From: Synechococcus sp.
Lineage (GTDB): Bacteria; Cyanobacteriota; Cyanobacteriia; Thermostichales; PCC-7336
Reading direction: 5' to 3'
Assembly: GCA_051439425.1 (NCBI GenBank)
Contig: JBFRWD010000156.1
Span: 1-55,138 of the forward strand
DNA length: 55,138 bases
Shown: in pieces, positions 1,739 to 32,048 of the stretch
Position numbering within the stretch: the stretch's first letter is position 1
How the letters are laid out: each line of letters starts with the position of its first letter
Notes under the pieces: model-generated
Databases searched by the model: none
The model's input: only the letters and a program-made list of their open reading frames with translations
What the model was told of the DNA's origin: nothing
Translations under genes and position numbers: made by a program

Positions 1739-4700
1739 ATGGGTGAATGGCAACGATTGTCAATCCGCGTTGGAACGTGGAGTTTGTTACTGCTGGCGCT
1801 GGACTCAGTTCCGGCTGTGGCACTGTCGTACTTCAGCGACAGCCTCTCAGATGGTAGCGATGCGGCTAGCTGGGCTGCCGCGATTGAGGCTGCTATTGAG
1901 GGAAATACTCTTGCTGACGCGCTGTCTCATGGTGCCCCGCAAGAGCTGGAATGGTATCAGCCGAAGTCGATCGCTCAGATCGCCGAAACCAGAGCTGATT
2001 CCGGTCAAGTCCAAACCAATTTGTTAGAGCCGGTACAGGTAGAGCCAGCCGACGATACCCTGCCGCCTGTTGCCCCCAGTCCAAGTCAGACCAGTCAGAA
2101 TCCGGCTGCCTTACCATCCCCTCCACTTGAAACCACTCCGGTTCCGCGCACTCCGGCCCCTGTTGGCGAGCCTGTGGATGACTTGCCGGGCAGTGAGATT
2201 GAAAGTTTGCCTTCTGCTGGCGCAGCTGCTGATTTGCAAGGTGAACTGCTCACTCCTCAGCCCTTCTTCGGTCAGCTCGATCCCGACCAGATTTTTGCCC
2301 CTATTCAGCTCGATAGTGTGGCTCCTTTTCCAGGAGTCCCCTTCCTGACGCAAGAAGAGCCTAATTTCGTCTTTGCGCCATTCCGAACGGATTTCTCCCC
2401 GCTGGAGCGGCCTCAATACCGCCTGTTTAATTTCGAAACGGCTTCCACGCTTCGTCAGCAGGAGCTCGTGTTGCGAGCCGGAACCACCATTGGCTCGGGA
2501 GGCAGCAACTGTGACGACGACGACGTATCCTGCGAAATGCGGATCGGGGTCGATTACGGTATTCGAGATGACCTCCTGTTTACGTTCGATTTAGCCCTGC
2601 AAGAAGGGGCAACCATAGCCGGAGTTACGGGTGGAAATTCCGAAGCCCGCTTCTCCTTTAACAGCATCTCTACCCAAATCAAGTGGCAGGCGTTTTCTGA
2701 CGAGCTGGTTAGTTTCGCTCCCACCCTAGGATTGTTGGTTGGGCCGCAGCGTTCCATTGTGTTTTCGCCTGCCAACACGGACTCTCGCATAGAAGCTAAC
2801 GACACCTCTGTGGTTGCAGGTTTGGCCTTGCCGGTCAGTATCACGCTGGGGGAAGTCAATCGGTTTACGATCAGCCCGCAAGTTAGCTTCTTCCCAGGTA
2901 GCCTGTCAGACATTGATGTGACTGGCGACCCCAATGACCTAGATGGTCGCAACGGCTTTAATGGCGATTCGCTGGACTATTACGGCACTGTCGTCGGTAT
3001 TGGTCTGGGGTTCGATCGCAGCTTGAGTCAGTATTTCAAATTCGCCGCCAACTACACCTTTATCGTGGCGGGCAGTAACTCGCTGGATAACGGTGATGAC
3101 TCGCTATTTGTCCCCCGTGGCGTTTGGGATGCCGGTTTTCGCTGGACTCCTAACAGTCGCACCGGCCTGGATCTATACCTGACCAACCGATTTAGCAACA
3201 CTGCTTCCCCCGCCAGCCTATTGGCGGCAGCGGATGGCGATATTTCTATTGCTTTGGACTTCTCGTTCTTGCCGGATGTTGGGAATGACTATCCCATCGA
3301 GATCCGCAACCGCTACCCGGCTACCTATCGTTTCCTATCTGCTTCTACCGGTTTCCCTGCTGCAACCTTGCCGATGGGTAGCATCCTTTATGAAACGGTG
3401 TTTGGTTCTCCGGGTCGTGTTGCTGGAACGGTTCGCTACGGTCTGCTAGATGACCTAGAACTGGTTGCATTGGGCAGCAGCAACGGCACCGATCAGTTCC
3501 GTAGCGAAGCGGGCTTGTTGCTCCGTTATGCTCTGCTGCGGGATCTGGGAGATAACGATATCTCGGCTTCATTCACGTTTGGTGTACAAAATCTATTTGG
3601 CGATCCCGATGTAGCTCTCTACACGGATGTGCCGGCGGCATTTGCCCTGTTTGACGATCGTCTGCTGCTGACCGTGGCTCCGAAGGGGGCGGTTCCCATT
3701 CAGGGGAATGCATTCGATGCGATCGGTGGTATTTCTACGGGGATCAACTTGTCTGTCATCGATCGCACGCAATTGTGGGGTCAGTGGACTCCCACGTTTG
3801 GAGACAATTGGCTGGATGACGGCAGTAGCGATGAATTTGCCGATCTAGATGGCAACCGACAGCTCTTTACGGTGGGGGTACGTCAGATATTTCCCTCCGG
3901 TAACTCCACGTATGCACTGGACTTTTTCTATTCCAACAGTGCAGGTGAGTATGGCGTGCAAGGGCTGACCGCTTTGCCCGACGGGGACACCCGATTGGGG
4001 GCACGATTCAGCATCCTAAATGGGGTGCCCTGGCAAACTCGCGAAGCGGAGGCTGAAGCGGCTGAAGCTGCGACAGTGGCAGCAGCTCCTGAGAGCGACA
4101 CTGAACTTGAAAGCGACACCGCCGAAGTTGGCGAATCGACGGCATCGAATGAGGAAGACGTAGCAGCGGCTTCTTCTGATGACGCTGAGTCTACTCCTAC
4201 GCAAGATGTCGAGCCGGAGCCAGAACCTGACTCCGAGCTAGAACCTGACCCCGAGCCAGAGCTCGATCCCGAGCCAGAAGCTGCTTTTGACTCTGTAGAA
4301 GAGGACGAGGACGCTCTCGATCCGCTTTCTAGCGAAGAGGTTGAGGTTGACGACGTTGAAACTAGCGAATTTGACGAACCTAGCGAACTTGGCGAATCTA
4401 GCGAACCCGACGAACCTAGTGAGCTGGACACTAACGAAGCGATCGCGGAGGAACCGGAAGCCGAGGCTGATGAGTTGGCTGAAGATGGACGAACTGAAGA
4501 GTCCGATGTTGAAGAAGTAGAGACGGAAGAGGATGACGAATCGGCAGTTATCGAGCCGATTGCTCCTTTGATTGACCCGCTGGCAGTGGATGCTGAGGAA
4601 GATAGCGAGCCTCCTGTAGAGAGCGGCCCCGATCTCGAACCGCTACCAGAACCCGAGCCAGAACCCCCTGAAGCAACAGCCCCTCAAGTGCAAGAGCGCG

Positions 4701-6085
4701 AAGCCAGCTTGGCGGAGCTGTCTCCCGAGCAAGCAGAGAGTGATGCGGATGATTCCACTGCTGAGGAGTTACCGGCCGCAGGCTCAGATCCAGTTGAAGA
4801 CTCAGATAATGAGTTGCCTGAGCCGGAAGCAGATAGCGAGCTTACTGGACTTGAGGTGGCTGAAAACGAGCCGGTGGAGGAAGACACCATCGCCGATGAG
4901 TCTGCTGAAGACGAGGTCACCGCAGAGGAGATGCCAGAAGAGGAGGTTGCTGTTGAGGAGACTCCTGCAGAAGAGATTCCTGTAGAAGAAGACGCGCCTG
5001 ATGTGGTTGGAGCCGCTCCAAGCGTACCGGAACCGCCTGCGAACGCGAACCCAATCCTGCTCGACGACACGGGTAGTACTCAAGAGGACACTCCACTATC
5101 GTTTGGCCCCACCGATCTGCTCGCCAATGACTCCGATCCGGACGGCGACACCCTAACCATTGCCTCGGTGCAAGATGCTACCAATGGTGAAGTGGTTCTG
5201 AATGACGACGGAACAATTGCCTTCACCCCAACCGCTGATGTCAGCGGTCAGGGCAGCTTCTCCTACACGGTAGCTGACGGAAATGGTGGCTTTGATACTG
5301 CAATAGTAGATATCGAGCTGGCCCCCGTTAACGATCCTCCGCTCGGTGACGACGACACCGGCTTGACTGCGGAGGACACTCCTCTGACGCTGGCCGCGGC
5401 AGATCTGCTGGCTAATGATTCCGACCTCGATGGCGATCCGCTCACCATTGTGTCTGTCCAGGATCCCACCAACGGTAATGCCACATTAAATAATGACGGC
5501 TCAGTGGCCTTCACCCCCAACGCCGATTTCAACGGCCTGGGTAGCTTCAGCTACACCGTCGACGACGGCAATGGCAGCACGGCGATCGCTCGCGTCACGG
5601 TTGAGGTTACCCCGACGAATGATGCTCCGATTGGTGCTCCTGATTCCGGCACCATCGATCAAGGAACGTCCTTGACTCTCAGCACCGCTGACTTGTTGGC
5701 CAACGACTCCGATATCGATGGCGATGCCCTTGCTGTTGCCTCGGTGCAAGAGGCCAGTAACGGTAGCGTTATCCTCAATGCTGACAACACCGTTACCTTT
5801 ACCCCAAGACCGGATTTCAGCGGTCAGGCAACCTTTACTTACACGCTGTCTGATGGCAGCGATGGCACCGACACGGCCACCGTTACCGTCACAGTGACGG
5901 CCGTTGCACCAGCCCCCCCCCCCGAACAACCGCCTGCCCCGGATACGCCGGACGAGCTGGCCCCTGACGCAGATCCGGAGGCAGCACCGGGTTACGTTCC
6001 ACCGTCCACCAGTGCAGACGATTTGCTGGCCCCCATTCCCGAGGCTCCCAATTCTGCTCCGCCTAACAATGGGGAGGGCAACTAA
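1739..6085 (+). CDS. large exported/outer-membrane protein: two tandem beta-barrel-like repeats, acidic low-complexity stalk, three cadherin-like (Ig-like) repeats
   Basis: N-terminal signal-like hydrophobic stretch; alternating beta-strand pattern at ~2430-4020; E/D/P-rich region ~4040-5040; three repeats with LLANDSDxDGDxLT and F(S/T)YT(V/L)xDG motifs at ~5045-5905. Confidence 0.85.
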   Translation: MGEWQRLSIRVGTWSLLLLALDSVPAVALSYFSDSLSDGSDAASWAAAIEAAIEGNTLADALSHGAPQELEWYQPKSIAQIAETRADSGQVQTNLLEPVQVEPADDTLPPVAPSPSQTSQNPAALPSPPLETTPVPRTPAPVGEPVDDLPGSEIESLPSAGAAADLQGELLTPQPFFGQLDPDQIFAPIQLDSVAPFPGVPFLTQEEPNFVFAPFRTDFSPLERPQYRLFNFETASTLRQQELVLRAGTTIGSGGSNCDDDDVSCEMRIGVDYGIRDDLLFTFDLALQEGATIAGVTGGNSEARFSFNSISTQIKWQAFSDELVSFAPTLGLLVGPQRSIVFSPANTDSRIEANDTSVVAGLALPVSITLGEVNRFTISPQVSFFPGSLSDIDVTGDPNDLDGRNGFNGDSLDYYGTVVGIGLGFDRSLSQYFKFAANYTFIVAGSNSLDNGDDSLFVPRGVWDAGFRWTPNSRTGLDLYLTNRFSNTASPASLLAAADGDISIALDFSFLPDVGNDYPIEIRNRYPATYRFLSASTGFPAATLPMGSILYETVFGSPGRVAGTVRYGLLDDLELVALGSSNGTDQFRSEAGLLLRYALLRDLGDNDISASFTFGVQNLFGDPDVALYTDVPAAFALFDDRLLLTVAPKGAVPIQGNAFDAIGGISTGINLSVIDRTQLWGQWTPTFGDNWLDDGSSDEFADLDGNRQLFTVGVRQIFPSGNSTYALDFFYSNSAGEYGVQGLTALPDGDTRLGARFSILNGVPWQTREAEAEAAEAATVAAAPESDTELESDTAEVGESTASNEEDVAAASSDDAESTPTQDVEPEPEPDSELEPDPEPELDPEPEAAFDSVEEDEDALDPLSSEEVEVDDVETSEFDEPSELGESSEPDEPSELDTNEAIAEEPEAEADELAEDGRTEESDVEEVETEEDDESAVIEPIAPLIDPLAVDAEEDSEPPVESGPDLEPLPEPEPEPPEATAPQVQEREASLAELSPEQAESDADDSTAEELPAAGSDPVEDSDNELPEPEADSELTGLEVAENEPVEEDTIADESAEDEVTAEEMPEEEVAVEETPAEEIPVEEDAPDVVGAAPSVPEPPANANPILLDDTGSTQEDTPLSFGPTDLLANDSDPDGDTLTIASVQDATNGEVVLNDDGTIAFTPTADVSGQGSFSYTVADGNGGFDTAIVDIELAPVNDPPLGDDDTGLTAEDTPLTLAAADLLANDSDLDGDPLTIVSVQDPTNGNATLNNDGSVAFTPNADFNGLGSFSYTVDDGNGSTAIARVTVEVTPTNDAPIGAPDSGTIDQGTSLTLSTADLLANDSDIDGDALAVASVQEASNGSVILNADNTVTFTPRPDFSGQATFTYTLSDGSDGTDTATVTVTVTAVAPAPPPEQPPAPDTPDELAPDADPEAAPGYVPPSTSADDLLAPIPEAPNSAPPNNGEGN
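4358..4429 (+). repeat. 18-bp coding tandem repeat x4 (ETSEFD/EPSELG/ESSEPD/EPSELD)
   Basis: gaaactagcgaatttgac gaacctagcgaacttggc gaatctagcgaacccgac gaacctagtgagctggac. Confidence 0.7.
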
Positions 6086-10494: not shown

Positions 10495-11319
10495 CTATCC
10501 CCTAGAAAACAGCACAAACAGCAACAAAAAGGCTGCGCCCACTGTCGCAACCGCCACCAATGCCATCCACAATGTGCGGGTTGTGCGCTCTAAACTTTGA
10601 ACGTGCGATCGCATCACAACCACTTGCTGTTCGAGCTGCAGGTATCGATCTCGCGACCATTCTTTTGCCTGGGTCTCGATTGACACCTGCTGCGCTTTAA
10701 CTTGGGTGACCAGTCCATTCTGGCGGTCATACAATTTACGCACCATGGCTTCCAACCGATCCAAACGCTCGGCTTCTTCGGGGGGAAGAGGTTGGCCATC
10801 ATTCACGTTCTGAGTCGCAATGGTTTGCAGGACTTGTTCCAGCAATCCCGGTCCCAATTGAAAGTAGCCTTTGCAAACGGAATGAATGGCATCGATCAGT
10901 TCGCCGGGGGGGGTTGCCTTCAGTAAATAGCCTTTGACACCAATTTGCAGCGCCCGATTGAGATAGGAAAAATCATCGTGGCTGCTGAGGACCAACACTT
11001 TGGTATTGGGAAACCGCTTGCTGATGGCACGAGCAGTGGTCAGTCCGTCGATGCCCGGCATTTCAATATCGACCAATGCAATATCCGGCTGATGGATTTT
11101 GATCTCGGCGATCGCCGATTGCCCATCGCTAGCTGTTGCTACCACCTGAATATCTTCAGCTTCTTCTAAATAGGCTGTCAGCATTTGCTGCACAAAATTT
11201 TGATCGTCTACGATGACCACGCGAATCAGGCCATCGTCTGTTGACTTACTGGCAGTTGGCTCACTGAGGTCTGCTGTTGAGTGGCTATTGGCATCGGATG
11301 CAAGAGGGCGATCGGCCAT
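10495..11319 (-). CDS. response regulator: NarL-type receiver + coiled coil + C-terminal TM helix, no HTH
   Basis: IVDD, LVDIEMPGIDG, LSS, GYLLK receiver motifs; C-terminal LWMALVAVATVGAAFLLLFVLF. Confidence 0.88.
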   Translation of the reverse strand: MADRPLASDANSHSTADLSEPTASKSTDDGLIRVVIVDDQNFVQQMLTAYLEEAEDIQVVATASDGQSAIAEIKIHQPDIALVDIEMPGIDGLTTARAISKRFPNTKVLVLSSHDDFSYLNRALQIGVKGYLLKATPPGELIDAIHSVCKGYFQLGPGLLEQVLQTIATQNVNDGQPLPPEEAERLDRLEAMVRKLYDRQNGLVTQVKAQQVSIETQAKEWSRDRYLQLEQQVVVMRSHVQSLERTTRTLWMALVAVATVGAAFLLLFVLFSRG

Positions 11320-12208
11320 ATGTTGGTCCTCGCAAGTGGGTAGTGAATCGATAGAGACGCCAAATTAAGGGAAAGAGTCTGTCACGTTTGGAGACACACG
11401 TTTTCAGGTAACGGTGGAGGGTTTCAATCCACAAACGATGTCATCTGGAACCGAGAGACCCCATCTACCCAACTCAGGCAGTCTGCCGGACCCTATGTGC
11501 CTGTGACTGACCTTTAGACCCATAAAGGCACATCTAACCCGAGTGCATTGCATCCAAATATCTAGACTCTCCGTATTTTAGTCATAAAATCCTATACCTA
11601 TTGCTTCTCGATGCTTGGCCTAAGATTTACTTAACGGGCCAGGTGTAATTTCTTGCTTTCGCTGCAAGATTTGGCCTGAAAACGATGCACGGGGAGGCAA
11701 CAGCGTTATGCTTTGCTTGACCTGAGCTCGATCGTTCTCATCCCCAACCTTTCTCACAATGTGGGAGCAGGGAGTAAGAAACATCAAGCTGAATACTTTC
11801 GTTGGGCTGCGGGGCAACTATCTTGCTCAAATGGCTCCGTAGAACTTAACGTTACCTGACATGACTCTCGTTCTTCCCGGGGGAAAATTGGCCGGTGCAC
11901 TCTTCGTGCTTGCTGACTGTTTCTGCTAGAAATCCCGGCCGGAATTTGTAAAAAACTCACTGTTGGGGGAAGGTGTTTGACCAAATTGACTGCGATCGCG
12001 TCCGTAGATTCAAGGTGCAACCGAGTAGAATCAATGTCAGTTTCGATCGCTCGGTAGGCGCAGTCTTGGATTTGCGGCAACCGTTCTGGCTTGAGCTTCC
12101 TCTCTGGATAGCAAGCACGTTTGTGTCGATCTGAGAGGGAACGAAGGATAGGCAGCTGTCGGGGCTGTTTGGACCTGCGATCGGTGTATTAGAACGGTGA
12201 GGACTTTG

Positions 12209-13531
12209 ATGGTGCAGGAGCGCAGTGATAGCCAAGGATTTGCACGCGATGGGTTTGTACGCGATGGATTTCCACGCGATGGATTTGCGAGCAATCGGCA
12301 AGCCTCGCTTCACCAGCTAGCGCCGGGTCGGTTTGCGTTCGGTGCTGTCGCGATCGCTGCGCTGACGCTAGCCAGTTGTGGCAGCGGGGATGTAGCCACT
12401 GAGCCTCCTGCAGGGACAGATGAGGGATTCAAAATCGGCTTAATTCTTGTGGGTCCCAAAGAAGATGCAGGCTGGAGTCAAGCTCACTTTGAGGGGGTGG
12501 AATACGTCATCGAGAATATGCCTGATGTCAGCTTTGATTTTGCCGATCGCGTCAACCCCGCCGATCGGCCGAATTTGCAAGCATCGCAGGTGGCGGATGA
12601 CTTGATTGATGGTGGTGCGGACATGATTATTTTCAACTCCGACGACCACAAAGACGATGCCCTGACCACTGCCGAAGCCCACCCAGATGTTGCTGTGATT
12701 CATGCCTCCGGTGACTATGCTTGGGAACAGGGGCAAAATTTCCAAGATTTGCCGAATTTGGGCAATGTCATGGTGCAGATGGAGTACGGTCGCGCCATCG
12801 CCGGTTGTGCTGCTGCGCTAGAGACCCAGGATGGCAAGATTGGCTTTTTGGGGCCGCTGATTAATGACGAAACCCGTCGGTTGGTGTCTGCCTCGTACCT
12901 GGGCGCAGATTATTGCTGGCAGGTCTATCGAGATGGAGATCCCGCCGACTTGGATTTCAAGGTGAGTTGGATTGGGTTTTGGTTCAACATTCCAGGCGTC
13001 ACCCTCGACCCCACTCAAGTGGCCGATGGCTTTTTCAACGATGGATATGACGTCGTCATGACGGGCATCGATACTCCGGAAGTGGCAACCCAAGCGGCCA
13101 AGGCTGCCGAGGCAGGCAGCGACGTCAAGTTCTTGCACTATACTCTGCCCACCGGTTGCGAGCTGGCTCCCGATATTTGTATTGGCGTACCGACCTACAA
13201 CTGGGGGCCGTCCTATCTTGAGTTCGCCCAAGCGGCATCTGCCGGAGAGTTTGAAGGTAGCTTTGTGTGGGCCGAGCCTGATTGGGCCGACATTAACAAT
13301 CTCGATACCTCTGCGGTGGGATTTGTTCAGGGAGAGGCGCTATCGGAAGACAACAAGCCACTCCTAGACGAGTTCATTGAAAAGTTAGGAGATGGCAGTA
13401 TCGACCTGTACGAAGGGCCGCTAAATTATCAGGATGGCACTGAGTTTGTGGCGGCGGGTCAAACTGCGACTCCCGAACAAATTTGGTATATGCCTCAATT
13501 GTTGGAGGGAATTGAAGGGCCGGGCGAATAA
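12209..13531 (+). CDS. BMP-family ABC transporter substrate-binding lipoprotein (nucleoside/purine type)
   Basis: Lipobox LASC; GPKEDAGWSQAH, WIGFWF, YNWGP motifs; ATG 12209 preceded by TGAGGA. Confidence 0.88.
   Translation: MVQERSDSQGFARDGFVRDGFPRDGFASNRQASLHQLAPGRFAFGAVAIAALTLASCGSGDVATEPPAGTDEGFKIGLILVGPKEDAGWSQAHFEGVEYVIENMPDVSFDFADRVNPADRPNLQASQVADDLIDGGADMIIFNSDDHKDDALTTAEAHPDVAVIHASGDYAWEQGQNFQDLPNLGNVMVQMEYGRAIAGCAAALETQDGKIGFLGPLINDETRRLVSASYLGADYCWQVYRDGDPADLDFKVSWIGFWFNIPGVTLDPTQVADGFFNDGYDVVMTGIDTPEVATQAAKAAEAGSDVKFLHYTLPTGCELAPDICIGVPTYNWGPSYLEFAQAASAGEFEGSFVWAEPDWADINNLDTSAVGFVQGEALSEDNKPLLDEFIEKLGDGSIDLYEGPLNYQDGTEFVAAGQTATPEQIWYMPQLLEGIEGPGE
12236..12295 (+). repeat. 15-bp tandem repeat x4
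   Basis: ggatttgcacgcgat gggtttgtacgcgat ggatttccacgcgat ggatttgcgagcaat. Confidence 0.85.
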
Positions 13532-17138: not shown

Positions 17139-20024
17139 CTATGGCTGCGAGTTGGATAGTGGATGTCTAAACTGCGTGACGGGGAGTTGCCACTGGTGTT
17201 GGAAACGTGACAGTGGAATATCTGCCGACCAGCACCACAGCAGGCGGTAACACTGGCGCGATCGCTCCGAGTTGGGTGGGCTGCAGAGGTAGATATCGCG
17301 CACGGCAGGAATTAAGTTGAGTACGAGATTCCCCTCCATCGTGTCTCGCAGGCGATCGACGGCAGATTTGAGCATGGCCTTACTGCGACTGGTGCTGAGG
17401 GCCGCTAGTAGGGTGGTCGTTACATGCGGGTGATCGGGACAAAACTGCCCTAACTTTCCGGCAATCCGAATGCGATGGGATAGCTCCTCCGCTCCCTCAA
17501 GCTTAATCAGTAAATTGGCGATCGCTTTATCGCGATCGGGCTCGCTCTGATTGCGATTCGACGGTCGAGATTTGGGTTGTTCAACTGGACGCGGGGTAGG
17601 AGATTTGCCTGTTAGCTCGTCCAAGTTGGCTTGCAGTTCTTTGCGGATGCGCGGGTCATCTGTTGCCGCCAGCAATTGCTCGATCGTTTGGCGAGGGAGG
17701 GGATGAGCTGGCTCGACTTTGGCCAGACGGTTTGCTGCTTTGCGGAGCAGGCTGGGCTTCGTTTCTGTCTTGAGAATGTCGATGAGCTGAATGGGAACCA
17801 GCGGATTGCCAGGATCGATCGCCTCCAAGCTGCGCAGAAAATTGAGCCTGAAGCTCACAGAGTGGTCATTCTGCAACAATTGAGTCAGCGTTGCGATCGC
17901 TACGGCATTGCCCGGATCGTGATTTTTTCCCAGGCTGTGGGCTGCTAACCACCGTTCTAATGGCAGTTGAGCAGATTGTACGAACGCCTCTAGGGCTGGA
18001 ATGCTGTAGGTGGGGTCGGTGCGAGCGAGGGCAATTCCCGCTTGCTCCACAATCGGGCCGGGGAGTTGACGCTCGCGTTCGGATTTGGCAAATCGCCAGC
18101 GGATGAGCTGTTGCACTAGCGTGGCCGTACCGGGATAATCGTCAATTTCGGCTAGTCCGCGAGCTGCGAAGAACTTAGCGCGATAGCTGTAGAGGCCACC
18201 GCAGCGATCGTCGAATGCGATCAGGCGATCGATAAATTCAACTTTCTCACCTGCGGCAATGTCGTCTCGTCCCAGCCATAGCAAAATGGTTTCGAACCAA
18301 ATGGGGGCAAAGATGGGAGCCAGGTCATCCCCTTCCCCGCTTGGCATGAAATCGTGCCAGGAGGACATTGCTTGAGCGGCAAAGTACTCCTGAAACGTCG
18401 GGTGATAGAAGGAATAGATCGGTTCGCCAAACCGGTCGGATGTGCCGACTGGGTTTAGCCAGCCAAGTTGCAGCGCCAGCGATAGCAGATCGAGCTGCCC
18501 TTGAAAGTGCCGCTCCACCACCGATCGCCGCAGGCGGAAACTGGGGGGAGATTGGGTCATGGCAGCCAACGCCAGTTGCGATAACGCCTCGTTCAGCTCT
18601 TTCCGTTGAGCTAATGTCGTCGGAAATAAGTCCTGCTTCCATTCGTAATGGGCGATCGCAAATTGTCGATACAAGCTGGTCTTGGTTGCAGGCAAATCTC
18701 CCTTCGCTGAAGCCCACGTGCGGCACAACAGAGCCAAGTACAGTGGATGGCGCACCAATTGCCGCACTCGTCGTAAGCGGTGCTGCGCTAACCGCCGACA
18801 GAGGTTGTCTCCTCGCTGCCGATCGCCCCGAAACCAGCGACCAATAAACTCCTCCACCTGATTTCTGCCTGTCGCATCATCCAACCCGGAACCGGAGTTG
18901 AAGCCACCTCCGTCACTAAAACTTAAACAGCGAAACGTGCGACATCCCGCCAGAGCATTGTTACCCGCGTCCCAAATATTGACGCGGCAGGTGAGAATCA
19001 CCTGCGCATCCGATAGCCATCCCTTCAGGTCTCGGGCCAAACGGGAGATTGCCCTACTGCCATCCCCTCCCAATTCATCTACTGCATCTAGCAATAGCCA
19101 CACCCGTCCCTGCCGAACTTGGGTCGCGAACTCTGCTACCGTTTCTTGGGGCACTTGAAATGCTTTGAATGCCTGCCGTAGCCAGGTCTGAGTTAGGTAG
19201 GTTTCTAGGGACTGGTTATCTAAATCCGCCAGCGAAATCCAAATGGGCAACGCACCGGGAGTTTGCAATAGAGCGATCGCCACCTGCTGCAATGACGTGG
19301 TTTTTCCTGCCCCCGGTTCTCCTACAATTGCGACTCTGGCCGGACCCTCAAAATCTGTCAGCCGATCGACCAATTCCCTGGGTTCGTATACCTCTGGGTT
19401 TGCATCTTCGTCTTCCTGCGATCGCCCTTTCCGCTCCACAATCCCCAGCGGAACGTAGATATCCCCTAGCTCAAACGCCATGCCATCGCCAGCAGTCAGG
19501 GGATTGCTGGTTAGCTGAGTATCCAACGCCTCGCGGCAGAGTTGTTGCCAGCGATCGCTTTCTGCCTGCTGTTTCTCTCCAGAGGCCGAGACCATTAGCT
19601 CTGCACAACTACTGTCGGGTCGAGCTGCTACCCAGGCGCGATTGAATTGAGCTAAGTTTTCGTCTCGATTCCAGCGATCGCTCCACAGCGTCAGGGTGAA
19701 ATGCCACTGGTCGGAGCCCCGTTTGACGGTGCGGTTGTCATCTAAGATGCCGACAAAATCCCCCAGATGCTTGAGGGCGGTTTTGATTTGAGGTAAAGAC
19801 AGAGGATTCTCGGGTTGGGCGAGCTTGCTCAACATTTGCAAATAACGTAGCTTGGCTCGCACCACCAATCGAGTCGGGGATTGCCAGTGGGTTTGTAGGT
19901 GGGGACGCAGGATGTCTTGCTGGCGTTCCTCCGCATCCAAACAGTCGTTGGCAAAATCTACCAGTGCAAATAGAAGCGATCGCGATCGCCGTTGGGATAT
20001 GGGGCCGTATCTCTGCGTGGGCAT
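17139..20024 (-). CDS. NACHT-domain STAND NTPase with N-terminal cyanobacterial domain and C-terminal HEAT-like repeats
   Basis: IYVPLGIVER, Walker A GEPGAGKTT, Walker B LLLDAVDE, ILTCR, HPLYLALLC, YSFYHPTFQEYFAA; repeats such as AAHSLGKNHDPGN, SLEAIDPGN. Confidence 0.9.
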   Translation of the reverse strand: MPTQRYGPISQRRSRSLLFALVDFANDCLDAEERQQDILRPHLQTHWQSPTRLVVRAKLRYLQMLSKLAQPENPLSLPQIKTALKHLGDFVGILDDNRTVKRGSDQWHFTLTLWSDRWNRDENLAQFNRAWVAARPDSSCAELMVSASGEKQQAESDRWQQLCREALDTQLTSNPLTAGDGMAFELGDIYVPLGIVERKGRSQEDEDANPEVYEPRELVDRLTDFEGPARVAIVGEPGAGKTTSLQQVAIALLQTPGALPIWISLADLDNQSLETYLTQTWLRQAFKAFQVPQETVAEFATQVRQGRVWLLLDAVDELGGDGSRAISRLARDLKGWLSDAQVILTCRVNIWDAGNNALAGCRTFRCLSFSDGGGFNSGSGLDDATGRNQVEEFIGRWFRGDRQRGDNLCRRLAQHRLRRVRQLVRHPLYLALLCRTWASAKGDLPATKTSLYRQFAIAHYEWKQDLFPTTLAQRKELNEALSQLALAAMTQSPPSFRLRRSVVERHFQGQLDLLSLALQLGWLNPVGTSDRFGEPIYSFYHPTFQEYFAAQAMSSWHDFMPSGEGDDLAPIFAPIWFETILLWLGRDDIAAGEKVEFIDRLIAFDDRCGGLYSYRAKFFAARGLAEIDDYPGTATLVQQLIRWRFAKSERERQLPGPIVEQAGIALARTDPTYSIPALEAFVQSAQLPLERWLAAHSLGKNHDPGNAVAIATLTQLLQNDHSVSFRLNFLRSLEAIDPGNPLVPIQLIDILKTETKPSLLRKAANRLAKVEPAHPLPRQTIEQLLAATDDPRIRKELQANLDELTGKSPTPRPVEQPKSRPSNRNQSEPDRDKAIANLLIKLEGAEELSHRIRIAGKLGQFCPDHPHVTTTLLAALSTSRSKAMLKSAVDRLRDTMEGNLVLNLIPAVRDIYLCSPPNSERSRQCYRLLWCWSADIPLSRFQHQWQLPVTQFRHPLSNSQP

Positions 20025-23160: not shown

Positions 23161-23409
23161 TACCTGCAAATGGCTTGTAAAGGCTCCAGTCATGCCAAGA
23201 GGAGTGTTGGGGGGTAAAAGTAGTCACCTAATCTGGAGGTTCCCCTATGAGCAGGGTAGATGCTCCAAGTCTTTGGAGCGTTATCTTTGGCCTGCTGGAT
23301 AACTGGTATCGGGAGTTTGGTCCCAGTCTGATCCAGTGGTGCCTGACCCCAAACTCAGCTTTAGTGACAGCGAGATGTCGAGCTTGCTGCCGGCCATGGA
23401 TGACTTTCA

Positions 23410-23603
23410 ACTCAACGGACTTTAATCCAAGTGAAAACTGCTGGTCGAAAATGAAAGCCGAGCTCACTAGGATGGAAGCACGCAATCAAGAGCGCTTAGA
23501 CGACGCAACCTTTGAGGGTATAAATCTGCTAACTCTCACTGATATTCATAGCTGATTTGCTCACTGCTGTTACTGTTCTAAATCACCATGAATACTGGCT
23601 ACA
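23410..23603 (+). pseudogene. IS630-family transposase 3' remnant
   Basis: Translates NSTDFNPSENCWSKMK...DIHS*FAHCCYCS, matching the IS630 C-terminus (SPDFNPIENxWSKxK...WFxHCCY); TGA at 23553 where Trp is expected; ends in GGCTACA, a possible degenerate ...GCTATA terminus. Confidence 0.75.
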
Positions 23604-24522: not shown

Positions 24523-27500
24523 TCAAAGAGGACAAATGTTGACTCTTGAGTTTTCTGGATGGCTTTCCAAGTAAGGCTGGAGCCAATCACAACCAGAATT
24601 TATCAAAGTATCCAAGCTTAATTGTTCGACCGGCTCATCATTCAAAAGTTTAAAACTATTCACAATCCCGTCGACGGTGACAGCAGTTAACATGTTTTGA
24701 GAGTCTTGAGAGGTAAAGCGAAGGTCGCGTACCCTATTGGGTAAAGGAAATTGGTCAATTCTTTCCTCGTTGAAATTCCATAACTGAATACTTCCATCAT
24801 ATAGATGAATAGCAAGGAGCTTGCTATCAGGGCTAAAGCGAAAACCTTCCACTCGCTCGTCGAGTGTAAGTCTAACAAGCTCCTTGCCGTTCAAATTCCA
24901 TAACGTAACAATATAGTCATTAGTGTCACTAGCTAAAGTTATGAAAGCTAGTGAATTACCATCGGGACTAAAGCCAGAGTTTTCGATTCGCCCGGGTAAA
25001 TTAAAATTAGAGATTTCTTCTCCGCTTAAGTTCCATATGCGAATAATACTATCAATATCATTGGAAATAGTAGCGAAAGTCTGCCCATCAGGGCTAAAGA
25101 GAAATTCATGCGGTATACCAGATTTCTCGTTTGTAGTAAGCTCATCCCATTCTCTTGCACTAACATTCCATCGCTGAATAGAACCATTATCCGAAAGTAT
25201 GGCGAAAGTGTCGCCGGCAGCGCGGAAGGGCCTCACTATTCTAGACGTCTCCTCAGTAGACAACTCAGTCCATTCATTCTCTCTTCCCCATAGTTGAACT
25301 GTGCCATTATCAAAAGAAATAGCTATAATATTTCCGTCGCGATTAAATTGAAGTTCTTGTGGGTTTGGAACTTTTGCCTCCTCTTCTACAGGGGATAATT
25401 CATCTACCTGATTCCCCTGCAACTCAATAAAGAATTTATCTACCTGATTCCCCTCCAAGTCCCATAGTTGAACAACGTTATTCAGCGAGATAGTCGCTAA
25501 GTCTATGTCATCGGTGTTAGGGTTAAAACTTACAGCTAAAACTATATCTAAAGCATCAACTAATCCAATCTGTTTTTGCTCAAGTACATTCCATATCTGA
25601 ACACGGTTATCATTCCACGATGTAAGTGCTAAAAACTCGCCGCTAGAATCAAGGCGGGACGAAAAAGACATTTCACCTTGTAAGGGCATAGGGAGTTGAA
25701 AGGAATCTTGTAGCAAGTTCCAAAAACTCAGGAATTCGTTGTCCAAAATGAGTAATTGTTCACTACTGAAGCTAATGTCTCTTACCGGTCCGTATGCTTG
25801 TAAATGATTTTGAAAAAAAATTCTTTCTCCTAGCAAGTTTAATAGTTGAACCTGACCGTTATTCAAGCCAACCGCTAAAGAGTTGCCGTTATCAATGAAG
25901 GAAAGACTCAAGACCGAAGTGGACGCATCCTGAAGCTCAGGATTAAGTTGATAAGAAGCAACTTCATTTTTATTGTCCTCACTATCCAAGTCCCATAACT
26001 GAATAGATCCATCTACTGTCGCAGTAGCTAATATTTTACTATCTTCACTAAAATCCATTGCTACTACACTATCATCAGCCGGAAAAACTGTTGAAGAGTT
26101 GCTAATGTCCTTTGCTCGCTCCCAGAGGCGAACAAAATGCTCACCAGCATAAGAAATAGTGGATGTTGCTAGCATCTGGCTATTTGGACTAAGCGCAGAT
26201 GTCAATAAGTTTTCACGTTCAAATGGGAGGATAGGGAAGAGAAGATAACCTGTTTCCCAATCAAATATTTTAATCGAGTTAGGATTAGCTTCAAATACCC
26301 TAACAACTAAAGGGTTGACATTTGGTTCTAATTCAAGATTTTCGTCTGAGTTCGATCTTTCAATTGGTGAAAGCTCGGAACATCTTTGTCTGTCTTGTAT
26401 ATTCCAGCGACGAATTTGATCGTTATTGAATGCTACAAAAAGAATCTGACCTTCGGGGCTGAAACGAAGTCCCTGAATAGGATTCGAGCCTGTATCAAAA
26501 CCTTCGTGAATAGCCTCACAAATGTTTCTACCTGTTGTCAAATCCTTTACTTGAAGATGGCCATCTACAAAAACAGCAGCAGCAGTCTTCATGTCTATAC
26601 TTAATTCAAAGAGCCTAATGCCATCATTCCCGGCGAAAGAAAAGTAATTACTTTCTTGAATCTTTGAAAGAATGTTCTGGATTTGATCTTTAATTTTTAG
26701 AAGTAAATCATCTCTTTCGAATCGACTAATAAATCTAGTACCTAATGGGTCCTTTTGCAAAAAATTACGAGCATTCTGGGCATTACTTATTGAACTTTGT
26801 AAAGCATCGAGGAGTTTACCAGAATCAATTAGATGAGCTGTATTTTCAATTCTATTTTGAATGTTGTTCTTGTTGTGATTAATATGCCAGCGGCCTATGG
26901 GATAGAAAAGGGCAAGACAACCAATTACAACGCCTGCTAGAGTTCTTCTTATTAGGAGACGTCTCTCCCGTTGCTCATTTTCTCTTTGTTTTTGTTTGTT
27001 TTCTCTTTGCTTTTGTTCAAAATAAAAATCTCTTCGCCAATCAAGGACTGCTTGACAAAGAAAGTCATGAAAGACCTCATATCGGCATTCGTCTTCACGC
27101 TCGAGAGCTTGACCGACTGAGCGGATAATCCTTCTATTACCCTCGGATAGTTTATCGAGGAGCTTCTTCAGGGTATTGGAATCACAACCAACAAAAGTAG
27201 CTAGATCCTGAACGGTATAGGAATATTTTGTTCCCGATGGAGTCACTAGATATTGGAAGCTGCGAGCGAGAATGCTTTTCTCCCTCTCAGATTCTATGGA
27301 GTTCATAGTTTTAGAAACATGCTCTCGGATAATCCACTTAATTGCATCCTTAGCTGTCTTCTCTCTCTCCGTATCTTTTTGATTTGCCAATTGTATCAGT
27401 GTTTCCAAAGTCAAATGGTTCAGTTTCATCTCACTCCAAAGATGACTCATTACCAATTGCAGATATGGGGGAAGAATTTGGTTTTCATGCAAATTCCGAT

Positions 27501-28428
27501 CTATTTTAGTAGTTCCAGCCAAGCCTCTACCTTCCTTCTCGACCTCTACCTGAGGAATCTCTTTCAAAATCGTATCTACAAGATCCTCATCAATCTTCAC
27601 AGCTTCTGCTGAGGGCACATCCTGGTTATATCTATCAATAGGATTATTAATGGCCTCTTTTGCTGACTGTATGTCAAGATGTTCAATATGCAAACATACA
27701 TCCAATAAACTTGGAATTTGTTTTCTCAATCGCTCTAACTTCGAGTAAGAGTCCTCACGTAGCGAAATCAGAAAGTTAACTCTCATCTCGGGACAATCGA
27801 TTATGCGAGATATCTCTCGAATGAAAGAATCATTAGATGAGTCTGGAGAATGGTATAAGAGATATTCTTCAAACTGGTCCAATATTATTAATATTCGGCC
27901 ATCAAATTTCTCTCCACCAAGCTGATGAGCCCAATCCTTTAATTTGTCAAATAAAGCCTTCTCATACTTATAAGTAATAATACTTAAGCCTGTATTGCGA
28001 AGATCTTCCTCAATCTGCTCTCCTAAAGCGTCCAGGGGATCTTCCTTCCATGATCGTTTCCCATCAAGAGGAGGAAAAACTGTTACCGCAAGTTTTGGTA
28101 CACCAAAATCTTCTTTGTTATTCTCAGCCTCGTCATGTATGGCGCTTACAACTCCAGCTCGAAGCACAGAGCTTTTACCTACACCACTCTCACCATAAAG
28201 AACTACTATACGCCAAGCAAATAAGTTATTTAGTATGCGTTGGATATCTCTCTCCCTACCAAAGAATATGTCTTTATCAGCTTCGGTATACGGATTTAAT
28301 CCCTTGTAAGGGAAGCCAATATTATTCCGTAACTCTGGAGTAAGTTCAGCCTGATTGTCTGATAAAAATTCCTCTGTATTGTCCAAGTCATTATTTGAAT
28401 TATGGTGAGTCGTTGTAATGTTTTTCAT
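24523..28428 (-). CDS. nSTAND1-type NTPase - coiled coil - TM - WD40 beta-propeller protein
   Basis: PYKGLNPY..FFGRE, Walker A GESGVGKSS, Walker B ILIILDQFEE, SLRED, PYLQLVMSHLW, YEVFHDFL; TM TLAGVVIGCLALFYPIG; many FSPDG...LW WD40 repeats. Confidence 0.92.
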   Translation of the reverse strand: MKNITTTHHNSNNDLDNTEEFLSDNQAELTPELRNNIGFPYKGLNPYTEADKDIFFGRERDIQRILNNLFAWRIVVLYGESGVGKSSVLRAGVVSAIHDEAENNKEDFGVPKLAVTVFPPLDGKRSWKEDPLDALGEQIEEDLRNTGLSIITYKYEKALFDKLKDWAHQLGGEKFDGRILIILDQFEEYLLYHSPDSSNDSFIREISRIIDCPEMRVNFLISLREDSYSKLERLRKQIPSLLDVCLHIEHLDIQSAKEAINNPIDRYNQDVPSAEAVKIDEDLVDTILKEIPQVEVEKEGRGLAGTTKIDRNLHENQILPPYLQLVMSHLWSEMKLNHLTLETLIQLANQKDTEREKTAKDAIKWIIREHVSKTMNSIESEREKSILARSFQYLVTPSGTKYSYTVQDLATFVGCDSNTLKKLLDKLSEGNRRIIRSVGQALEREDECRYEVFHDFLCQAVLDWRRDFYFEQKQRENKQKQRENEQRERRLLIRRTLAGVVIGCLALFYPIGRWHINHNKNNIQNRIENTAHLIDSGKLLDALQSSISNAQNARNFLQKDPLGTRFISRFERDDLLLKIKDQIQNILSKIQESNYFSFAGNDGIRLFELSIDMKTAAAVFVDGHLQVKDLTTGRNICEAIHEGFDTGSNPIQGLRFSPEGQILFVAFNNDQIRRWNIQDRQRCSELSPIERSNSDENLELEPNVNPLVVRVFEANPNSIKIFDWETGYLLFPILPFERENLLTSALSPNSQMLATSTISYAGEHFVRLWERAKDISNSSTVFPADDSVVAMDFSEDSKILATATVDGSIQLWDLDSEDNKNEVASYQLNPELQDASTSVLSLSFIDNGNSLAVGLNNGQVQLLNLLGERIFFQNHLQAYGPVRDISFSSEQLLILDNEFLSFWNLLQDSFQLPMPLQGEMSFSSRLDSSGEFLALTSWNDNRVQIWNVLEQKQIGLVDALDIVLAVSFNPNTDDIDLATISLNNVVQLWDLEGNQVDKFFIELQGNQVDELSPVEEEAKVPNPQELQFNRDGNIIAISFDNGTVQLWGRENEWTELSTEETSRIVRPFRAAGDTFAILSDNGSIQRWNVSAREWDELTTNEKSGIPHEFLFSPDGQTFATISNDIDSIIRIWNLSGEEISNFNLPGRIENSGFSPDGNSLAFITLASDTNDYIVTLWNLNGKELVRLTLDERVEGFRFSPDSKLLAIHLYDGSIQLWNFNEERIDQFPLPNRVRDLRFTSQDSQNMLTAVTVDGIVNSFKLLNDEPVEQLSLDTLINSGCDWLQPYLESHPENSRVNICPL

Positions 28429-28477
28429 CACTCTTACTCTATCCTCAAGGTTCTTTTGTGCTTGTCAAAGAAAATGT

Positions 28478-30400
28478 CTACTCTATCTCTTCCACAGCCT
28501 GCATTAGAGATGCTACGAATCTTTTTGTAGAACCAGAAATTGATAGCAACTCTATCTTCCGTTTCCCCCCCCAAATTATTGACTCTATATCCTCATCCTG
28601 GGAGGGATAAATTAGTTTCGATCCTGTTTCAAGTTGATCTTCTTCCCAAATCCAATGCAATAATAATTGCAATTCTGAATCATTGGGGTTGACACCCAGA
28701 AATAAAATACTCGATTCTTGGAGAATTCTGCGCAGACTAGGTGGTAACTTCTTAATTTGAGTTCGAATTAGAGAATTCAGGTGTTCTTCAGTAACAACAA
28801 AACCTTCATCCTCTGAAACTTTATCTTGACTTCCATACAGCTTCAAAATAATTGGATGTGGCTTCTTCGAACTACCCCAAGGTTTTCTAAGCGGTAGCTT
28901 AGCGTCATCGTTATTCGGGTCAATAATAGTCTTCGGATCCGTAGTGCCATAAGGTTTATGCTTGAACTTACCACGTTCGCTGCCATCAGCCATATAATAA
29001 ATAACATCGTAGGGCTGATCTTCCTCATCAAAGGCTTCCTCCAATAGTGTATCGAAACATGTTGTTACTATTAGCTGAAATGGAAGCCCTTCATGACGTT
29101 TTGGATAATGCTTAGAAAGCATTACTCTTGGTAACTTAGCAAAGAACTGATGTATTTGATTCGGAGAGCTTAACCCATTTCTTTCGAATTGTTCATCAAT
29201 AATTTGATAGAAGTCTCTTAGACTTTGATTCTGCTTGTAGTATTGAGATAGATATCTGAGATTTATCTTAGCAACAGATAGTTGTTGCTCTTTATATCGA
29301 GGGCATTCTGGGTCTCTTTCTATCCCCTCCAAAAGAGGACATCCTTCGGGTCTATTTTCAGGCGGATAGTGACAAAACTGGCAAGGAACTCCCATTTGTC
29401 TCTGAAATATATTCCAATTTGGCGAATCTAAAGATATAGCCTCTTCTGCTAGTCCTTCACTCCTTGTTTTCTCAATCAAATTTGATGCGAGATTAATGTA
29501 AAAGTCCGGACTAATACCCAGACCAAGAAATGGGACAACATTGCCAAATTTAAATTGTTTGACAATTGCTTTGTATTGATTAGCTGACAGTACGGGCCTA
29601 CGTGGAGGGTTTCTAGGATCTAAAGGTCTATCGCGTAAGAAATGTTTGGTAAAACTAGCAGCAATTTTGGCAGCGTAGTCATGCCACTCATCATTTTTCT
29701 CTGCATCAGCAAAGTCGCAGATAGATTTAATAGTCAAGTATCTTTTGCGTTTAAAACTTTGCCAAGCGCCAGCGCTAGATCCATATCCTTCCATCTCAAT
29801 TGCTAAGATTTTGCGATTTCCCTCGGCAATCTCATCACGAATAGCACTGTCTGCTATCACCTTCTCACCAGAAGCAATCACTCCGCAATGAATTTGAGGG
29901 AACGTTTGGGTGCCATCGGGCCTGGGTAAATCGGGAGGTGGGGGCCAGTGAGTAACATTTCTCTCCCGATCCAAGTGACTAACATTTCTCGCCCGATCCA
30001 AAAGGGTTGCATCAGCTGGATACATTACTGGTTCTGGATATCTGTTTTCGGCGGTGAGTTTATTACGCTCGTAGTAATAAATTGTTCGACCTATCACCAG
30101 ATCGCCAAACTTTTGCTCATCTTTGTCTACACCTGCAGCGATTCCTACCAGCAAAATAGCTCTAGGATCCCAGTGGTGGATTGTATCAGCAACCAATAGC
30201 GCAGAATCAACACCACCCATGTCTGCTGCCTGACACACAACTATTTCATAGAATTCACCTTTACCGATTTCTAAAGCCTTGCGCCAGTAAGTTCTCGGCC
30301 CCTCCGGAACACGTTCCGAGTCGCCCATCTCAAACTCTTTACAGACAGCATCACGCTCGATGTCGATGGCAGTAACGATCGCAAAATCTATCTTTGGCAT
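28478..30400 (-). CDS. PNP/MTA-SAH nucleosidase-like domain fused to a SIR2-like domain
   Basis: N-term: IVTAIDIE, LLVGIAAG, GDLVIG, GVIASGEKVI, AIEMEG, IKSICDFAD..KND.W..YAA. C-term: VVPFLGLGIS, LIVTTCFDTLLE.AF, ILKLYGS, SILFLG. Confidence 0.88.
   Translation of the reverse strand: MPKIDFAIVTAIDIERDAVCKEFEMGDSERVPEGPRTYWRKALEIGKGEFYEIVVCQAADMGGVDSALLVADTIHHWDPRAILLVGIAAGVDKDEQKFGDLVIGRTIYYYERNKLTAENRYPEPVMYPADATLLDRARNVSHLDRERNVTHWPPPPDLPRPDGTQTFPQIHCGVIASGEKVIADSAIRDEIAEGNRKILAIEMEGYGSSAGAWQSFKRKRYLTIKSICDFADAEKNDEWHDYAAKIAASFTKHFLRDRPLDPRNPPRRPVLSANQYKAIVKQFKFGNVVPFLGLGISPDFYINLASNLIEKTRSEGLAEEAISLDSPNWNIFQRQMGVPCQFCHYPPENRPEGCPLLEGIERDPECPRYKEQQLSVAKINLRYLSQYYKQNQSLRDFYQIIDEQFERNGLSSPNQIHQFFAKLPRVMLSKHYPKRHEGLPFQLIVTTCFDTLLEEAFDEEDQPYDVIYYMADGSERGKFKHKPYGTTDPKTIIDPNNDDAKLPLRKPWGSSKKPHPIILKLYGSQDKVSEDEGFVVTEEHLNSLIRTQIKKLPPSLRRILQESSILFLGVNPNDSELQLLLHWIWEEDQLETGSKLIYPSQDEDIESIIWGGKRKIELLSISGSTKRFVASLMQAVEEIE
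29948..30001. repeat. 27-bp in-frame tandem duplication (LDRARNVSH/LDRERNVTH)
   Basis: gtgagtaacatttctctcccgatccaa / gtgactaacatttctcgcccgatccaa (2 mismatches). Confidence 0.85.
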
Positions 30401-31511: not shown

Positions 31512-32048
31512 ATGGACGAGCAGCTTCTCTCGATCTTTCTGGTAGAATACTCAGCCCTCAAGTCAGAACAGAATGCCCGCATTGGCTTTCGAGACAACCT
31601 TCTTTACGTTACACTTGGCTTGTTCGGGGGCATTATGTCTTTTGCTCTGACAAATGAAGATGGAGCGATTGCATTGCTTGTAATTCCTTGGGTCTGTTTG
31701 GTTTTGGGATGGACCTATATAGTCAATGACGAAAAGATTTCGTCTAGCGGTGATTATATTCGGACTGTTTTGAGTAAACAAATTGCCAAACATATCGATC
31801 CCTCTTCCGATGTAGACTTCTTTGGCTGGGAACGCTTCCATAAAATAGATGCACGTCGTATCGATCGCAAACGTAAACAGTTATTGGTCGACCAGATGGC
31901 TTTTGTTCTGTCTGGTATTATTGCCATATCCTTGTTCTGGATTCGCAAACCCGACCCCAACCTTTTGAATATTTTCATCAGTGGAGTCGAATTCATTTGC
32001 TTGGTACACTTAGGTCTAGAAATCAAATCCTATACTAGAATTACTTGA
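31512..32048 (+). CDS. multi-pass membrane protein of unknown function
   Basis: EYSALKSEQNARIGFRDNLLY followed by 2 TM helices, NDEKIS..GDYIR, FGWE, then 2 more TM helices; ATG at 31512 (alternative GTG 31482). Confidence 0.75.
   Translation: MDEQLLSIFLVEYSALKSEQNARIGFRDNLLYVTLGLFGGIMSFALTNEDGAIALLVIPWVCLVLGWTYIVNDEKISSSGDYIRTVLSKQIAKHIDPSSDVDFFGWERFHKIDARRIDRKRKQLLVDQMAFVLSGIIAISLFWIRKPDPNLLNIFISGVEFICLVHLGLEIKSYTRIT

Follow-up and report, generated by a model that had tools for sequence, protein, structure and literature searches.

Gene content of the locus

The window analysed here (a 55,138-nucleotide stretch, contig JBFRWD010000156.1 of a Synechococcus sp. assembly) contains, within an AT-rich island, a cassette of three genes: gene 1, encoding a PNP nucleosidase domain fused to a SIR2-like domain; gene 2, encoding an nSTAND1 NTPase followed by a long WD40 array; and a divergently oriented gene for a small four-helix membrane protein. 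We consider this cassette to be a three-gene split NLR-like conflict system, probably of the anti-phage, abortive-infection type, carried on a horizontally acquired island, and we give this reading as a whole a probability of about 0.55. An earlier note, made from the sequence letters, had proposed a split system consisting of genes 1 and 2. Domain identities, the conservation or loss of particular residues, gene order, the link between the membrane protein and the PNP domain and the compositional island were all computed directly. The features of the locus are listed below (coordinates are those of the window; aa, amino acids; ORF, open reading frame).

28478..30400, minus strand: gene 1, fusion of PNP and SIR2-like domains (640-aa ORF, Pfam, PADLOC)
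29636..30385, minus strand: PNP (MTAN-like, Cap17-clade) domain, aa 6-255 of gene 1 (Pfam, PADLOC, conserved residues, fold)
28481..29587, minus strand: SIR2-like Rossmann domain with a Cys-rich insert, aa ~272-640 of gene 1 (profile against PDB)
24523..28431, minus strand: gene 2, nSTAND1, charged linker, hydrophobic helix and WD40 (1302-aa ORF, Pfam)
27004..28311, minus strand: nSTAND1 NTPase module, aa 41-476 of gene 2 (Pfam; Walker A GESGVGKSS, Walker B-like ILDQFEE)
26890..26949, minus strand: predicted transmembrane helix, ~aa 495-514 of gene 2, after RERRLLIRR (hydropathy, orthologue alignment)
24592..26499, minus strand: WD40 array, aa ~645-1280 of gene 2, ~14-15 blades (Pfam WD40/beta-propeller families)
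31512..32048, plus strand: third gene, four-helix membrane protein (own hidden Markov model, E 1e-78)
23247..23555, plus strand: IS630/DDE_3-type transposase remnant, C-terminal end only (Pfam DDE_3, E 0.003)

Genes 1 and 2 are separated by 46 nt, within which a GAGGA-type ribosome-binding site is found, and the start codon of gene 2 is GTG, with an ATG one codon downstream. Gene 1 and the membrane gene point away from each other, 1.06-1.1 kb apart; the membrane protein has 178 aa when counted from the ATG at 31512, the frame being open from 31482. The guanine-plus-cytosine (GC) content is 0.38-0.42 across ~24-33 kb, against 0.51-0.57 in the flanks, and the island as a whole (~0.40) differs likewise from the complete 4.8-Mb assembly (0.514). 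Both the same-strand gene pair with a gap of ~50 bp and the AT-rich island, as described in the earlier note, are therefore present. The transposase remnant marks the left border of this island. Promoter and terminator scans of the island gave nothing above chance, a search of 22.9-33.4 kb against Rfam was negative at E <= 0.1, no tRNA was found in the window, and each of the three spacers of the cassette occurs only once in the host genome.

The N-terminal part of gene 1 is a PNP domain (Pfam PNP_UDP_1, PF01048, aa 6-255, E 1.6e-16), and its defence-type character, also claimed in the earlier note, is borne out by two PADLOC models, the CBASS 'Effector PN-superfamily' (E 2e-21) and PDC-M60C, which matches gene 1 over the PNP part only (E 5e-36). 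Residues E15, E204 and D229 are invariant in all 32 aligned members of the gene-1 family and fall, in the alignment, on catalytic-type positions of MTA/SAH nucleosidase (MTAN); the motifs that had been regarded as intact-looking (AIDIE, AIEMEG and KSICDFAD) align with these positions. In the structure model of gene 1 (pLDDT 81), the PNP domain superposes on MTAN/futalosine hydrolase with a TMt of ~0.8 (Foldseek). It shares 37-39% identity with PNP-SAVED proteins encoded in three operons (L033, L035 and L062) of the CBASS type (cyclic-oligonucleotide-based anti-phage signalling system), and on sequence grounds it is placed in the Cap17/DtcC immune clade. In the available part of Rousset et al. 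(bioRxiv 10.1101/2023.01.24.525353), Cap17-clade PNP domains are described as splitting ATP or dATP into adenine and a sugar triphosphate and as components of Detocs as well as of CBASS, Avs and pAgo systems, the activity being demonstrated there for Cap17, DtcC and two eukaryotic domains only. By analogy, gene 1 would encode an ATP nucleosidase. The window copy also contains a 27-nt in-frame tandem duplication (window 29947-30001; 2.0 copies, 92% match), which gives a 9-aa loop insert (HLDRERNVT-type) seen in no orthologue.

Over aa 443-601, in the second half of gene 1, Pfam detects SIR2_2 (PF13289; E 4.8e-14, score 53.1 bits, cut-off 24.5), which upholds the fusion described earlier, and among PDB structures a profile of this half matches KomC (E 4e-10) and DSR2 (E 8e-7). 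The SIR2-like family retains the GxG loop and the Asp of the Rossmann fold. The DSR2 segment LLKVHGDF, which includes H171, aligns to the family motif ILKL[YF]G (ILKLYG in the window), and the column of the catalytic His is occupied by Tyr in 17 and by Phe in 15 of the 32 family members, with no His at all. The equivalent residue of KomC is H146, for which PDB entries include an H146N mutant, and H171 of DSR2 was likewise mutated to inactivate the enzyme. The Asn of the TTNYD motif is retained in 29 of the 32 members; the window copy has Cys (TTCFD). Since the catalytic His is lost, a second, NADase-type effector is unlikely; the domain is probably an adaptor, a docking module or a nucleotide- or ligand-binding module. 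In another protein (P0061, 764 aa), the fusion partner of the same His-less SIR2-like module (ILKLFG, TTNYD) is a CHAT protease and not PNP, and because of this replacement the module may be the constant part of an architecture with exchangeable effectors.

Gene 2 starts, after only ~40 residues that vary in length and sequence among orthologues and are of low complexity, with the nSTAND1 module (PF20703, E 1.4e-37; score 130.7 bits, cut-off 27.1; covering the first 355 of 379 profile positions), whose conserved beginning is PYKGLNPY. Residues G83, G85, K86, S87, D185, Q186 and F187 are invariant in 9/9 aligned orthologues. Neither Pfam nor the orthologue alignment revealed an N-terminal effector domain, and PADLOC gave no match to gene 2 at E <= 0.1; nSTAND1 with WD40 and no N-terminal effector is a very common architecture (3156 hits). 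Behind the NTPase, a 21-nt repeat encodes a short linker, charged and of low complexity, which replaces the 'coiled coil' of the earlier note; the other parts of that description (almost no N-terminal extension, a single predicted transmembrane helix and a long WD40 array) were all recovered.

The strongest 19-aa hydrophobic window of gene 2 covers aa 492-510 (Kyte-Doolittle 1.76). A hydrophobic helix is found at the same position in 7 of the 9 orthologues, its place being conserved and its sequence not. Among the 120 nearest nSTAND1 relatives, 72 carry a hydrophobic segment (defined as a 19-aa window with Kyte-Doolittle >= 1.6 between aa 400 and 900), with a mean net charge of +3.4 on the N-terminal and +1.1 on the C-terminal flank, the N-flank being the more positive in 59/72. 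In this set of 120 (P0391-P0510), the segment, where present, separates the NTPase from the repeat sensor. A membrane tether thus appears typical of this nSTAND1 clade, and because the N-flank is the more positive, the positive-inside rule predicts, from hydropathy only, a cytoplasmic NTPase and a WD40 array outside.

Such a topology would suit a transmembrane receptor for cell-cell or envelope cues, with periplasmic WD40 propellers, acting in local programmed cell death or kin discrimination. The periplasm is continuous along cyanobacterial filaments, and the hosts of the cassette are mostly filamentous cyanobacteria. The N-flank of the helix is strongly basic both in the window and in 7/9 orthologues; this, together with the segment and the flank charges of the 72 relatives, favours this explanation, as do the link that Kaur et al. 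(full references below) draw, in the portions available to us, between such systems and a multicellular habit, and the periplasmic sensor domains predicted for some STAND-type targets of diversity-generating retroelements (Doré et al., PMC10907252; available part). However, the topology comes from hydropathy alone, the loci L011 and L012 retain the same partners without the helix, and export of a ~780-aa double propeller behind one internal helix would be demanding. A C-terminal Cys motif is uninformative on location, because the helix-less orthologues have it too. We regard an outward-looking receptor of this kind as improbable and treat gene 2 as the sensor of a split conflict system.

Conservation of the gene pair and its membrane partner

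To survey the neighbourhoods of gene-1 homologues, one genome per species was scanned, and 80 loci were taken out of 284 confirmed ones (the PNP-seeded set). Among the 120 gene-1 relatives listed, 39 (that of the window included) cover at least 88% of the query, and the named full-length relatives come from filamentous cyanobacteria, e.g. Thainema, Alkalinema, Leptolyngbya and Nodosilinea. A full-length PNP-SIR2 orthologue is present at 11 of the 80 loci (L001-L009, L011 and L013), and a twelfth PNP-SIR2 locus (L010) is cut by the contig end. In all 11 loci with downstream DNA, an nSTAND1 gene lies directly downstream of the gene-1 orthologue; it starts 10-30 nt after it, shares 40-51% identity with gene 2 (tblastn, NTPase part) and is followed by WD40 repeats wherever the contig continues. 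The conserved pairing that the earlier note had expected from such a survey is therefore observed. Chance adjacency of the two genes, considered as an alternative, is ruled out by the synteny counts (11/11 loci).

Three further observations concern the organization of the pair. At L012 (Mastigocoleus), the PNP (340 aa) and SIR2-like (451 aa) parts are separate genes placed before the nSTAND1-WD40 gene. Conversely, in protein P0090, nSTAND1 (aa 12-400) is fused to PNP (aa 580-808) in one chain, which fits the expectation of the split-NLR reading. Comparison of gene 2 with its L006 orthologue showed 51% identity in the NTPase part and 27.7% in the WD40 part; this ~2x faster divergence of the WD40 part is as expected for a sensor under diversification. 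At two loci, the gene-2 orthologue is split into two ORFs (L002, 9930-13624, 510+716 aa; L007, 9906-13324, 207+995 aa), which is a frameshift, decay or an assembly error.

At 10 of the 12 PNP-SIR2 loci (L001, L002, L004-L010 and L013), a membrane gene immediately precedes the gene-1 orthologue in the same orientation; there it encodes 183-200 aa with four hydrophobic helices, and it is also present at the split PNP/SIR2 locus L012. With respect to the two-gene split system of the earlier note, the conserved pair and the effector-less nSTAND1-WD40 protein thus stand, and the number of genes does not, as the conserved unit has three. That the earlier note did not recognise the combination as a named system agrees with PADLOC, which gave no whole-system match and none of whose models matched gene 2. 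The two neighbours described here are the only membrane gene and the only PNP gene of this clade in the host genome.

The membrane family is large, with 1026 relatives at E <= 1e-3 (90%-identity clusters) and 1443 representatives at 50% identity, 613 of them at E <= 1e-10, and nearly all members are stand-alone proteins of ~180-200 aa. Pfam-A, which should include EACC1 and SLATT models, gave nothing at E <= 0.1 for the membrane protein except CarS-like (0.052), NCBIfam had no match to the family, and PADLOC returned nothing consistent (PDC-M50A in 3/31, best E 0.002; PDC-M67B in 1/31). The AlphaFold model (pLDDT 89) consists of four long helices, and the invariant polar residues are predicted to sit on their cytoplasmic extensions. 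With this model, Foldseek found no PDB match at E <= 0.001, a wide VIA-align search found designed or generic helical bundles only (best Z 12.6, which lies inside the quoted range of helical models), and the nearest clusters of the ESM Atlas are unnamed integral membrane proteins. One member (P0383, 406 aa) appears as a fusion of the membrane domain to an O-methyltransferase, which may be a gene-calling artefact.

The family is not confined to the cassette, being present at 27 of the 80 PNP-seeded loci. There the membrane gene stands beside (i) PNP-SAVED in CBASS operons with CD-NTase, E1/E2 and JAB (L033, L035 and L062), (ii) NACHT-HEAT-PNP (L015 and L016), (iii) SNF2-PNP (L017), (iv) X-PNP-bDLD3 behind a DUF4011 helicase-REase (L056, L058, L064 and L067), (v) PNP-caspase in a Beggiatoa-like gammaproteobacterium (L038) and (vi) PNP-GUN4 (L072). 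The CBASS operons with the membrane gene are of type II and cyanobacterial (L033, 4670-10311; L062, 5833-13944; L035, 3004-9917). The remaining 53 loci, mostly outside cyanobacteria, have no membrane gene, which limits the link between the membrane protein and PNP.

In the converse test, the membrane-protein profile was searched, without PNP seeding, in 401 genomes of the phylum. The family was found in 13 of them, the genome of the window included, and 13 membrane-seeded loci were taken from the 12 other genomes. A PNP ORF is present at 11 of these 13 loci, in nine cases within 1.2 kb and in two more within 5 kb. The PNP domains at these loci are fused to FGE-sulfatase, NACHT, nSTAND3 or TPR-GreABC-PIN modules, one adjoins an nSTAND5 NTPase, and a divergent arrangement of the membrane and PNP genes is common (L095-L099, L104 and L106). 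Because the PNP neighbours vary in architecture and the converse test recovered PNP at 11/13 loci, the membrane protein is tied to the PNP domain and not to the sensor. As a side observation, the 35.9-kb contig of L095 (G260:C7) encodes, immediately behind a stand-alone PNP gene and the membrane gene divergent from it, a ResT/TelK-type telomere resolvase (11081-12433, E 2.6e-27); this contig may be a linear plasmid or a prophage carrying the PNP-membrane module.

Proposed mode of action and competing explanations

For the three-gene split system, we infer the steps of trigger sensing, oligomerisation and activation in trans, the substrate, the role of the membrane protein and the topology as follows. 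A trigger would bind the fast-evolving WD40 propellers of gene 2 and drive NTP-dependent oligomerisation of nSTAND1; the oligomer would then recruit or activate the separate PNP-SIR2-like protein, possibly via the SIR2-like module, and the PNP domain would cleave (d)ATP, or a related nucleotide, at its N-glycosidic bond, leading to cell arrest. The SIR2-like domain may serve as a docking or ligand-binding regulator (of the NAD/ADP-ribose type). The membrane protein would act specifically with PNP, whatever the sensor, as a co-effector or as a membrane-located safeguard. The hydrophobic helix of gene 2 would tether the sensor protein to the membrane and, if it spans the bilayer, would place the WD40 array in the periplasm.

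A wider proposal, which we put forward tentatively and hold to be possible if doubtful, is that the membrane protein is a dedicated PNP partner in a portable effector module of two parts used by at least eight sensor types (CBASS/SAVED, NACHT, nSTAND1, nSTAND3, helicase-REase with bDLD3, caspase, FGE-sulfatase and TPR-GreABC-PIN), where it would gate the membrane on the PNP product or restrain the enzyme, and that the nSTAND1 clade comprises true transmembrane NLR-like receptors whose NTPase would be cytoplasmic and whose WD40 sensor would be extracytoplasmic.

Several observations speak against the three-gene system as outlined above. The membrane gene is missing at two of the 12 orthologue loci (L003 and L011), and that of the window is divergent and distant from gene 1, whereas those of the orthologues are co-oriented with it. 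Two of the 13 membrane-seeded loci (L103 and L105) have no PNP, so that the link between the two proteins is strong but not obligatory. Distances between membrane proteins and between PNP domains are uncorrelated (Mantel r 0.04, 548/2000 permutations at least as high, n=39), and a co-evolving protein interface is therefore not favoured. The hydrophobic helix of gene 2 is absent from the orthologues at L011 and L012, so membrane tethering would not be essential to the core mechanism. No EAD, bDLD or Death-like adaptor was found by Pfam on gene 1 or gene 2. The ATP specificity of the gene-1 PNP domain is drawn from analogy, and the duplication in gene 1 and the Asn-to-Cys change in its SIR2-like domain mean that the copy may be partly decayed. 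A complex prediction for the PNP domain (aa 1-265) with the membrane protein scored 0.00 and was counted neither way.

The behaviour of the membrane protein suggests that the roles may be reversed, i.e. that PNP makes a signal (the base or the ribose-phosphate product), the membrane protein kills as a product-gated pore or depolariser, and the STAND protein switches the enzyme on. The membrane protein accompanies PNP irrespective of the sensor, and it is more conserved than PNP and shows no co-divergence with it, as expected if it reads a small molecule and not a protein surface. Moreover, conserved acidic residues (E170 and D137) are situated within its helices or at the helix ends, a conserved polar patch faces the cytoplasm, and in one protein (P0249, 319 aa) the membrane domain is fused to a Nuc_deoxyrib_tr-like domain of an N-glycosidase-type fold (E 2.3e-5, below the Pfam cut-off). 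On the other hand, the PNP domains of Cap17 and DtcC are toxic alone through ATP depletion and have no such membrane gene (Rousset et al., available part), the 53 PNP-seeded loci without a membrane gene have already been mentioned, and fold searches with the membrane protein gave generic helical bundles only. We consider such a reversal rather unlikely and keep nucleotide cleavage by PNP as the proposed arresting step.

A further explanation is that the window copy is a decaying, non-functional remnant. Compared with every close orthologue, its membrane gene has the opposite orientation, with no inverted repeats found that would account for the inversion, and the last residues of the membrane protein diverge (YTRIT against YADLAKGR). 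The SIR2-like Asn-to-Cys replacement occurs only in the window copy, gene 1 carries the 27-nt duplication, a transposase remnant is situated beside the island, and the gene-2 orthologues split at L002 and L007 indicate that decay does happen in this family. However, all three ORFs are full length and free of stops, the PNP and Walker motifs are intact, and the divergent order of membrane and PNP genes is, as shown above, common elsewhere (L095-L099, L104 and L106). Decay to a non-functional state is in our view quite improbable.

Relation to known systems

The components nSTAND1 systems, in-trans effector genes, PNP ATP nucleosidases and SIR2 effectors are already known. No description of the three-gene cassette, of the PNP-linked four-helix family, of the His-less SIR2-like module or of the clade-typical nSTAND1 membrane helix was found in the portions of the literature covered; the supplements of the Kaur and Rousset papers and Burroughs et al. 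2015 (NAR 43:10633), which lie outside them, may contain gene neighbourhoods of this kind. A membrane family with PNP as its one consistent neighbour points to an extra step in nucleosidase immunity, possibly membrane action, product sensing or self-protection, and a His-less SIR2 fold that keeps nucleotide-binding motifs is a candidate adaptor or sensor module. If the helix of gene 2 and its relatives spans the membrane, these proteins would be receptor-like, outward-looking NLRs, a form that bacterial STANDs are not known to take; if none of these holds, the locus is another member of the cyanobacterial conflict systems.

One close comparison is with the nSTAND1 conflict systems of Kaur, Iyer, Burroughs & Aravind (eLife 2021, PMC8195603) and Kaur et al. 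(eLife 2020, PMC7159879). As far as the available portions of these papers go, the same nSTAND1 family (PF20703) is combined with a repeat-array sensor, the effectors overlap (PNPase, SIR2, TIR and caspase) and are often encoded in a neighbouring gene, and both those systems and the cassette are enriched in filamentous cyanobacteria. In contrast, the published systems couple through shared EAD or Death-like adaptors, none of which was detected in the window genes, and nSTAND1 is described in these portions as part of FGS-centred and EACC1 systems and not together with a PNP-SIR2-like or a four-helix partner. Relatives with EAD5, EAD7, EAD10 or bDLD3 fused to PNP do exist. The EACC1 two-gene systems (Kaur et al. 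2020, available portion) resemble the cassette in combining a small constant membrane part with a variable effector, but EACC1 has a single transmembrane helix and caspase-type partners and is found mainly in actinobacteria, whereas the protein of the window has four helices and a PNP partner.

Outside the island, in DNA of normal GC content and 4.5 kb away, the window contains a second STAND of the type described by Kaur et al., a 961-aa protein (17139-20024, minus strand) that combines EAD4 (E 1e-33) with an NTPase of the NACHT/nSTAND5 type and with HEAT repeats; the EAD4 domain implies a partner effector elsewhere. The product of a further large gene (1739-6085, plus strand), 1448 aa long, contains repeated cadherin-like/Big_9 domains and is probably a surface adhesin.

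Cap17 (of CBASS) and DtcC (of Detocs) belong to the same immune PNP/MTAN-like clade as gene 1, with the catalytic-type Asp and Glu kept. Their regulators, in the part of Rousset et al. available, are a SAVED or a receiver domain, whereas the regulator in the window would be a STAND-WD40 protein acting in trans, and the cassette of the window has in addition a His-less SIR2-like domain fused to PNP and a membrane partner gene, a component that this part of the paper does not mention. No SAVED or CD-NTase was found in gene 1, gene 2 or the examined ORFs of the island. From the PDC-M60 candidate system, which may correspond to Detocs, only PDC-M60C was matched, with no PADLOC hit for gene 2 or the membrane protein. 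The SIR2 NADases DSR2, KomC and ThsA (PDB 8k98, 8zsf and 6lhx) share with gene 1 the SIR2_2 Rossmann fold, the GxG loop and the family motif TTNYD, but at the position of H171 of DSR2 and H146 of KomC the gene-1 family has Tyr or Phe in 32/32 members, and the window copy additionally has Cys for Asn.

Finally, the cassette follows the same sensor-NTPase-effector logic as Avs and bNACHT proteins, and PNP is also found at the N-termini of Avs proteins (Rousset et al., available part). Avs and bNACHT are, however, single chains, whereas the effector of the window is a separate polypeptide and a predicted membrane helix lies between the NTPase and the sensor; the NTPase of gene 2 is nSTAND1, with no match to the Avs or NLR models of PADLOC. 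Both STAND/NLR-type immunity and ATP-nucleosidase effectors are established, and the cassette described here bears on the way in which the two may be coupled in trans without a Death-like adaptor.

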